Assembly: GCA_001244265.2 (NCBI GenBank)
Contig: CDLV01000004.1
Coordinates: 372,001-436,000, forward strand
Length of the DNA: 64,000 nucleotides
Origin: Microbotryum violaceum
Lineage: Eukaryota
Reading direction: 5' to 3'
Positions 8,751 through 9,212 of this stretch are shown here, piece after piece. Position numbers and translations under genes: made by a program. The notes below the pieces were generated by a model that saw only the letters and a list, made by a program, of their open reading frames with translations, was not told the origin of the DNA and did no database searches. The stretch's first letter is position 1; the number at the start of each line of letters is the position of its first letter.

Positions 8751-9212
8751 TGTTATTGTAGGAGCGTCTCTAGTTACGTGACGCCGATAGATGACCTATT
8801 GTGAGATAATGGGTCGCTAAAGGTCAATCGACTGTAACAGAGCGACTAGGCGAGATGTGATATCGAGTGCGTGGTAATGTATTTCAACTAACCTATTGTG
8901 AGATAATGGGTCGCTAAAGGTCAATCGACTGTAACAGAGCGACTAGGCGAGATGTGATATCGAGTGCGTGGTGGAGTATTTCAACTAACCTATTGTGAGA
9001 TAGTGGGTCGCTAAAGGTCAATCGACTGTAACAGAGCGACTAGGCGAGATGTGATATCGAGTGCGTGGTGGAGAAGAGAGAAAAACAGCTAGGCCAAAAA
9101 GACGCAATCTCATGTAAACAACCAGCCGCCTCTGATGGTCCCCCGCACAACACCCGCGCGCGCCCGCGCCATAAGTCCTCTGGACCGCAGACCCCACTAA
9201 TTTCCCACAACA
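8751..9212 (-). repeat. copia-1 5' LTR (462 bp) with two extra 97-nt GTTAGT...TAG units
   Basis: Units at 8796-8892 and 8893-8989 are absent from the 3' LTR. Confidence 0.95.

Follow-up and report, generated by a model that had tools for sequence, protein, structure and literature searches.

The window, that is, the whole stretch of 64,000 nucleotides that was analysed, holds two copia families only, here called copia-1 and copia-2. The first is represented by an element inserted in a 6.8-kb repeat, with the following features.

4360-9212, minus strand: copia-1 element, Ty1/copia retrotransposon, LTR to LTR
4938..8603, minus strand: copia-1 reading frame, gag-protease-integrase-RT-RNase H, broken in the window's copy
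8739..8750, minus strand: PBS-like GGTTATGAGTCC, so placed by position, adjoining the 5' LTR and containing the gag ATG (8744-8746)
9213..9217, minus strand: target-site duplication CGGGC, 5' side, 5 bp
4355..4359, minus strand: target-site duplication CGGGC, 3' side, 5 bp
58208..58212, minus strand: empty site in copy 2 of the 6.8-kb host repeat, where CGGGC stands once and uninterrupted

One frame of 1221 amino acids (8603..4938) carries, in this order, copia-type gag, gag-pre-integrase, integrase core and RVT_2 domains, as recognized by Pfam (Retrotran_gag_2, residues 25-167; gag_pre-integrs, 384-453; rve, 470-570; RVT_2, 841-1064). Both LTRs are of the TG...CA type (TGTTG...AACA), lie in direct orientation and are each bordered by CGGGC. 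The second copy of the host repeat (55526-62284) is 98.9% identical to the first (1671-4359 plus 9213-13301) over 6779 nt, with 55 mismatches, 16 gap openings and no insertion; the CGGGC on both flanks together with the empty site in this second copy mark copia-1 as a true transposition product, and it is a Ty1/copia element of transposition origin. The host repeat contains a 191-bp tandem repeat exactly where copia-1 inserted, and otherwise only short ORFs, with no Pfam match for the one ORF examined.

The closest public protein to copia-1 (P0003; 1403 aa, from a cluster of 40 sequences, source name Microbotryum silenes-dioicae) starts at the copia-1 gag ATG, which supports the placement of the gag start. 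Related copia lineages found by the protein search are 71-92% identical. The PBS-like sequence is presumably complementary to initiator tRNA-Met; no tRNA gene lies within the 64-kb window. Fungal LTR elements are primed from the anticodon loop of tRNA-iMet (PMC10886601). The GGG at 8711-8713 is one base short relative to the contigs of all four public runs compared, the gag frame stopping after 15 codons, and an in-frame TAA at 4938-4940 precedes the end of RNase H; with this gag frameshift and in-frame stop, the window's copia-1 copy is dead. An alignment of 14 proteins gave 32 loci in viral contigs, all of which matched only residues 455-638 (integrase core); none was copia.

The two LTRs of copia-1 differ in their number of repeated segments, as laid out below (core, the repeated segment; unit, a spacer plus a further core).

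8751..9212, minus strand (element sense 9212..8751): copia-1 5' LTR, 462 nt, three core copies
9068..9076, minus strand: shared block CTTCTCCAC, where the CT-rich box ends and the repeated core begins, with an exact match in copia-2
8990..9072, minus strand: first core, 83 nt, ending CAATAG; putative R
8893..8989, minus strand: unit 1, spacer GTTAGTTGAAATAC (8976-8989) plus an 83-nt core with 1 mismatch to the first core
8796..8892, minus strand: unit 2, spacer GTTAGTTGAAATAC (8879-8892) plus a core whose first three bases are ATT in place of TCC
8751..8795, minus strand: LTR tail, 45 nt, putative U5, identical in both copia-1 LTRs
4360..4638, minus strand: copia-1 3' LTR, 279 nt, one core, no spacer, with a 10-nt U3 insertion absent from the 5' LTR

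The original prediction had picked out 8796-8989 as extra LTR repeat units bounded by splice signals, and the interval consists of exactly two 97-nt units (unit 1 and unit 2, 194 nt). Tandem Repeats Finder reported a single array in the 5' LTR (8794-9073; period 97, 2.9 copies, 97% matches, score 532). Read in element sense, the LTR runs from U3 and the CT-rich box through the core, two successive spacer-plus-core units and the 45-nt tail. Both units begin with GTTAGT and end with CAATAG, as had been described; their bodies are indeed copies of the upstream LTR segment, the 83-nt cores differing from the first core at 1 (unit 1) and 4 (unit 2) positions; and the 3' LTR (4638..4360), said to lack the units, has one core and no spacer. 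The branch-like TTGAC attributed to each unit is present and is the sole YTRAY motif, although its A stands 28 nt, and not about 25 nt, before the unit's last base.

Each copia-1 unit thus comprises a spacer of 11-14 nt and an 83-nt copy of the segment that extends from the CT-rich box to ...CAATAG. Because the GT and the final C of the spacer are common to the parent sequence, the bases without a counterpart in a one-core copia-1 LTR amount to 11 nt only, TAGTTGAAATA. The parent one-core LTR reads CAATAG/GTCATC at the border (a slash marks the border here and below), so that AG/GT is already present there. Of the 97 registers in which the repeat can be cut, a single one has GT..AG borders, there being one AGGT per unit, and this register is also the natural border of the duplication.

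When the two copia-1 LTRs were aligned, 7 substitutions were found in about 268 aligned nt, in addition to two indels. Set against the 55 mismatches in 6779 nt of the host repeat, this divergence suggests that the LTRs were probably not simply identical at insertion; it may be a sign that one of them was converted by another copy, or that the pair was unequal from the start. No further copia-1 LTR copies occur in the window. A search of both LTR regions against Rfam gave no score near the gathering threshold, and RNA folds of the leader and of single units yielded z-scores of -0.91 to +0.98, indicating no special structure.

The second family is present as two 3' halves, whose LTRs also differ in core number.

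18027..18292, minus strand: copia-2 3' LTR, left arm, 266 nt, two cores, in the order CT-rich box, core, spacer, core, tail
18118-18178 and 18041-18101, minus strand: left-arm cores, with the spacer GTTAGTTACTGCAAAG at 18102-18117 and a 14-nt tail
22279..22467, plus strand: copia-2 3' LTR, right arm, 189 nt, one core (22393-22453), no spacer

Copia-2 forms a near-perfect inverted repeat of 2146 nt (18118-20263 and 20308-22453, separated by 44 nt), in which each arm reaches from about polyprotein residue 761 to the 3' LTR, with the LTR ends pointing outward. The flanks of the inverted repeat differ and carry no matching 5-bp duplication; the differences between the arms are confined to R and tail (one T/C, one T/G, and 2 cores against 1). 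Beside the left LTR, at 17500-18000 on the minus strand, lies a gene with a GDSL-lipase-like start and, judged by eye, two apparent introns (GTGAGT...TTGAC...TAG and GTAAGA...CTGAC).

Across RT-RNase H, copia-2 is 56% identical to copia-1 over 419 aa. Its left LTR repeats the layout of the copia-1 5' LTR with a 61-nt core ending CTCTTAG, a 16-nt spacer and a second core identical to the first at 61 of 61 positions. The parent one-core LTR of this family reads CTCTTAG/TCCGTG, and the GT at the copia-2 border comes from the spacer. The duplication is thus laid out alike in both families: it opens at the conserved block behind the CT-rich box and closes with TAG, and the spacer that comes next begins GTTAGTT. 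It had been proposed that other copia LTRs be surveyed for TAG/GTTAGT and that the GT/AG boundaries be compared across families; within the window, the one other family, copia-2, is positive (1 of 1) and keeps TAG/GTTAGTT. The 10-mer AGGTTAGTT occurs three times in the 64 kb, each time at a unit border and in two LTR families, against an expectation of 0.24; none of 100 shuffles reached three, a figure to be read with the fact that one of the three occurrences duplicates another. The TAG/GTTAGTT border motif is more than chance.

Five exact blocks of 9-12 nt are colinear between the copia-1 and copia-2 LTRs: AGTGGGGTCTG, GCGCGCGCG, TTGCGTCTTTTT, CTTCTCCAC and TAGGTTAGTT. The last of these is the border motif, which is as conserved as the other LTR landmarks, while the remaining spacer and most of the core differ; the two spacers diverge after 7 bases and are 14 (copia-1) and 16 nt (copia-2) long. 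A search of the window for the source of either spacer, allowing up to 2-3 mismatches, gave one chance-level match and nothing else. A scan of metagenomes with two of the conserved LTR blocks returned six loci, which were rejected as chance matches, none of the six having further LTR or polyprotein likeness.

Other copies of copia-1 were sought among public sequencing runs, of which 24 were listed, none recorded as RNA, and 20 contained the element; four of them (X7, X16, X17 and X19) were compared, in every case as assembled contigs, and three of the four were informative. In X7, a 4422-nt contig passes directly from 8793 to 8988, a gap of exactly 194 nt; its one-core LTR continues into the PBS and gag in one direction and into U3 and the end of pol in the other. 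X16 yielded a 315-nt contig with two cores, in which five extra letters (CTGAG, element sense) precede GTTAGTT and which departs from the window at 23 of about 219 and at 7 of 92 aligned letters. In X17, a 74-nt contig runs across the first core, the spacer and the next core, with two changed letters at the start of the downstream core; X19 gave no bridging contig. The number of cores among copies is therefore 1 (X7), 2 (X16) or 3 (the window's 5' LTR). Since the X16 contig has the same spacer despite its 23 differences in about 219 letters, the spacer appears to be inherited and is not private to the window's copy. The U3 insertion of 10 nt that marks the 3' LTR in the window also recurred, as inserted letters in X7 and as a loose end at 9177 in X19. 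Summed contig depth over 8874-8996 was low in X16, with this interval uncovered in X19 and X7, and the depth of the X17 spacer contig was similar to that of its flanks; such depths are neither copy numbers nor expression levels, and the relative frequency of one-core and spacer-bearing forms is not derivable from them.

The layout of the LTRs suggests that the repeated core is R. Pyrimidine-rich blocks of the kind found here precede transcription start sites in fungi, and the core begins at such a conserved block, CTTCTCCAC, which may be the transcription start region. The LTR left after the last core measures 45 nt in copia-1 and 14 nt in copia-2, leaving little room for both R and U5 behind the core, and in copia-2 probably none. 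The 323 nt from the first core to the end of the copia-1 LTR contain no ATG, the first being that of the gag start. The sizes of the cores are unexceptional, retroviral R regions of 15-250 nt being described as normal (PMC12789967).

These observations point to the spacer-bearing LTR as an inherited form, present in at least two related copia families of the Microbotryum genome, and not the accident of one copy. We incline, with modest confidence, to the reading that the extra units represent an inherited U3-R-spacer-R-spacer-R-U5 structure whose copy number changes and which retains a conserved signal at the border. [quoted passage not shown] The RNA of such an element would start R-spacer-R-U5 and end either U3-R or U3-R-spacer-R; strong-stop DNA, or the reverse transcriptase, could then pair with the wrong R and leave 1, 2 or 3 copies, and chromosomal slippage or gene conversion could shift the number of R copies likewise. 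Template switching, slippage and conversion would explain why the copy number is polymorphic and why, within each family, the R copies are nearly identical. We infer the template-switching route from what is reported of other direct repeats: a direct repeat of 110 bp was deleted at 41% per cycle of reverse transcription, and LTR enhancer repeats of 50-75 bp are described as unstable, with template switching driven by homology (PMC3187697). The window copy, with three cores in its 5' LTR and one in its 3' LTR, is a dead element, and its 3' LTR would belong to a different LTR subtype. The head of the spacer, TAG/GTTAGTT, would be a conserved cis signal, which the observations do not require to be spliced; by analogy with HIV-1 and foamy virus, it is possible that the GTTAGTT border is a U1 site controlling the adjacent poly(A) site.

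This inherited-repeat reading leaves the origin of the spacer unexplained, with no source in the window, and gives no reason for the 7 first bases that the two spacers have in common, for which the chance between two random spacers would be 4^-7. Loss of the spacer would also be irreversible. If tens of percent were lost per cycle, its survival in two old lineages would suggest that the form has been favoured by selection or remade, which would speak for a functional reading such as an intron.

A real leader intron, in any version, is a minority possibility, although a substantial one. In its general form, which we regard as rather unlikely, the spacer and the R copy behind it (R') would be a spliceosomal intron inside the LTR, older than the split of the two anther-smut copia families, and would owe its persistence to a body copied from R, whether through the copying of unspliced RNA or through the landing of strong-stop DNA on R' at the 3' end. 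In the simplest version, for which we would give slightly less than for the general form, the spacer and next R would be spliced from the mRNA with TAG/GTTAGTT as the 5' splice site, while unspliced RNA would be reverse-transcribed; splicing would restore an ordinary R/U5 leader and the LTR form would be inherited unchanged. The GT..AG borders in the single possible register are consistent with this, as are the leader without an ATG, the 10-mer border, conserved between two families whose spacers otherwise differ, and the X16 variant, which retains AG/GTTAGTT despite its five added letters. Of 8 positions, AG/GTTAGT would presumably pair with the 5' end of U1 at 7. Given how unstable such repeats are known to be, a selective benefit is likewise called for, and in many basidiomycetes intron-less genes are poorly expressed. 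An intron is often needed for good expression in these fungi, according to the account in PMC8379801.

The borders were compared with the five introns of a thioredoxin-domain gene in the window (34977-37653; 6-exon model of 743 aa with no internal stop), whose product aligns end to end, at 92% identity, with a named M. lychnidis-dioicae protein (protein disulfide isomerase-like). These introns are 72-113 nt long and begin GTAAGT, GTACGT, GTAAGT, GTAGGT and GTGAGC, a sample too small to represent a rare class. The units, at 97 and 77 nt, fall within their size range. All five introns have G at +5, as does GTTAGT, but none of the five has T at +3. A YTRAY motif is located 22-47 nt before the end in four of the five, a range that includes the A of TTGAC at -28 in copia-1, whereas the candidate branch site of copia-2, CTGAG, departs from YTRAY and has its A at -19. 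The introns of the gene at 41378-47353, whose positions were derived from a predicted relative, were left out of the sample as too uncertain; a candidate among them reads GTTAGA. A leader intron would, moreover, have no need for a body that is a copy of R, and the one-core LTR joined to PBS and gag in X7 indicates that the element can exist without one. The spliced leader would be structurally the same as a one-core LTR, so that only a marker base of the first core could tell them apart: at 9003 the first core has C, whereas units 1 and 2 and the 3' LTR have T at the matching place.

Improbable, to our mind, is that the spacers are a recurrent by-product of reverse transcription, in which strong-stop DNA would jump without R homology and copy a few bases of a common template. 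Three observations would suit such a jump: in both families the limits of the duplication coincide with the putative RNA ends; the spacers, 14 and 16 nt long, agree over their first 7 bases only; and the downstream core is variable at its start (TCC, ATT, and two altered letters in X17). The window, however, holds no template for either spacer, non-homologous switching is reported to be at least 1000-fold rarer than homologous switching (PMC3187697), and the same spacer in the divergent X16 contig (23 of about 219) points to inheritance.

More doubtful still is the self-regenerating intron that the original prediction had put forward, in which the 5' copy would be spliced, the RNA would end in or at the end of R', and strong-stop DNA landing on R' would rebuild the spacer and R. 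Everything that speaks for a leader intron would apply here too. In addition, re-copying R' from R in each cycle predicts a body that is a near-perfect copy of R, as is found (82/83 and 61/61), and the AG of the 3' splice site coincides with the putative cleavage site, so that it would be lost at the 3' end. Yet the copia-1 element's own 3' LTR has no R' on which to land, a large share of cycles would end in permanent loss of the spacer through landing on R, and a version that used an unspliced template would be more stable. Placing a 5' splice site directly before a poly(A) site usually has an inhibitory effect. Ordinary expansion and contraction would also produce concerted evolution of tandem copies, and ordinary switching of template between direct repeats, as described in PMC3187697, would lead just as readily to differences in unit number. 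The self-regenerating scheme is coherent and possible, but not needed.

Least probable of all, and close to refuted by the contigs of other runs and by copia-2, is a simple tandem duplication in the chromosome, through replication slippage, that affected one dead copy and has splice-like borders by coincidence of the register chosen: the window's copy is dead through its gag frameshift and in-frame stop and the copia-1 parent LTR already has AG/GT at the border, but slippage cannot create an 11-nt novel spacer, the same spacer is found in contigs of two other runs, and the same border motif is found in copia-2, where the parent reads TAG/TC and not AG/GT.

Several components of the inherited R-spacer-R form have precedents. 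Size variants of the LTR and leader are known in Drosophila copia. Retroviral LTRs carry tandem enhancer repeats of 50-75 bp that are likewise short, direct, variable in number and unstable in reverse transcription (PMC3187697); the known repeats sit in U3 or are enhancer motifs, whereas the unit described here appears to be R and ends 14-45 nt before the LTR end, and, unlike the known LTR repeats, it includes a spacer with a conserved splice-donor-like head common to two families. Tandem duplication of an AGGT-bearing segment is a described route of intron gain, in which splicing from the GT of one copy to the AG of the next can restore the original RNA (PMC3265369, PMC4974935). Those introns lie in protein-coding genes with splicing shown, while the present one is a predicted candidate; a duplicated parent with AG/GT at the border is found in copia-1 but not in copia-2, whose GT derives from the spacer. 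The major splice donor of HIV-1 and foamy virus is a U1-type site close to R and the poly(A) site, at which bound U1 snRNP silences the 5' poly(A) site (PMC12789967); that donor is outside the LTR and has acceptors far downstream, whereas the motif here is inside the LTR between R copies, with U1 binding a guess.

Engineered split-intron retroviral vectors, the retained introns of Penelope-like elements and the lariat model for Ty1 all link splicing signals, terminal repeats and survival through reverse transcription; the vectors are artificial, Penelope-like elements belong to another class, the Ty1 model is disputed, and to our knowledge none of them has an R-spacer-R arrangement. Ogre, EVADE, BARE1 and Cer1, also LTR elements, retain introns thanks to the copying of unspliced RNA; these introns are located internally and yield subgenomic gag or other messages, and none is described as lying in the LTR or deriving from R in the account given there (PMC12786077). 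Tandem repeats in LTRs, loss of repeats driven by switching, introns of LTR elements and intron birth by tandem duplication are thus already known. A literature search, covering its sources in part, found no R-spacer-R LTR with a conserved donor-like border, which is not proof of absence.

A retroelement should normally lose an intron if the RNA it copies has been spliced. If the intron reading were true, a duplicated R with a donor-like border would be a simple natural way round the conflict between intron loss and expression; an otherwise intron-less retroelement would gain intron-dependent expression in a basidiomycete, and intron birth by duplication could be watched in a multi-copy family. 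Even if the units were never spliced, LTRs with one to three copies of R joined by spacers would offer a natural marker of where strong-stop DNA lands in a fungal copia element.

Elsewhere in the window, the ORF at 16129-16710 had no matches in a representative search and is probably not coding. The gene at 41378-47353 (minus strand), with a partial copy at 30472-31737, is a multi-copy gene of about 12 exons; its relatives in Microbotryum silenes-dioicae are 1517-1765 aa long, one of them with a Peptidase_C48 domain, and it probably belongs to a large DNA transposon. A further tandem repeat, with a 22-bp period and 4 copies at 80% matches, lies at 26110-26197.
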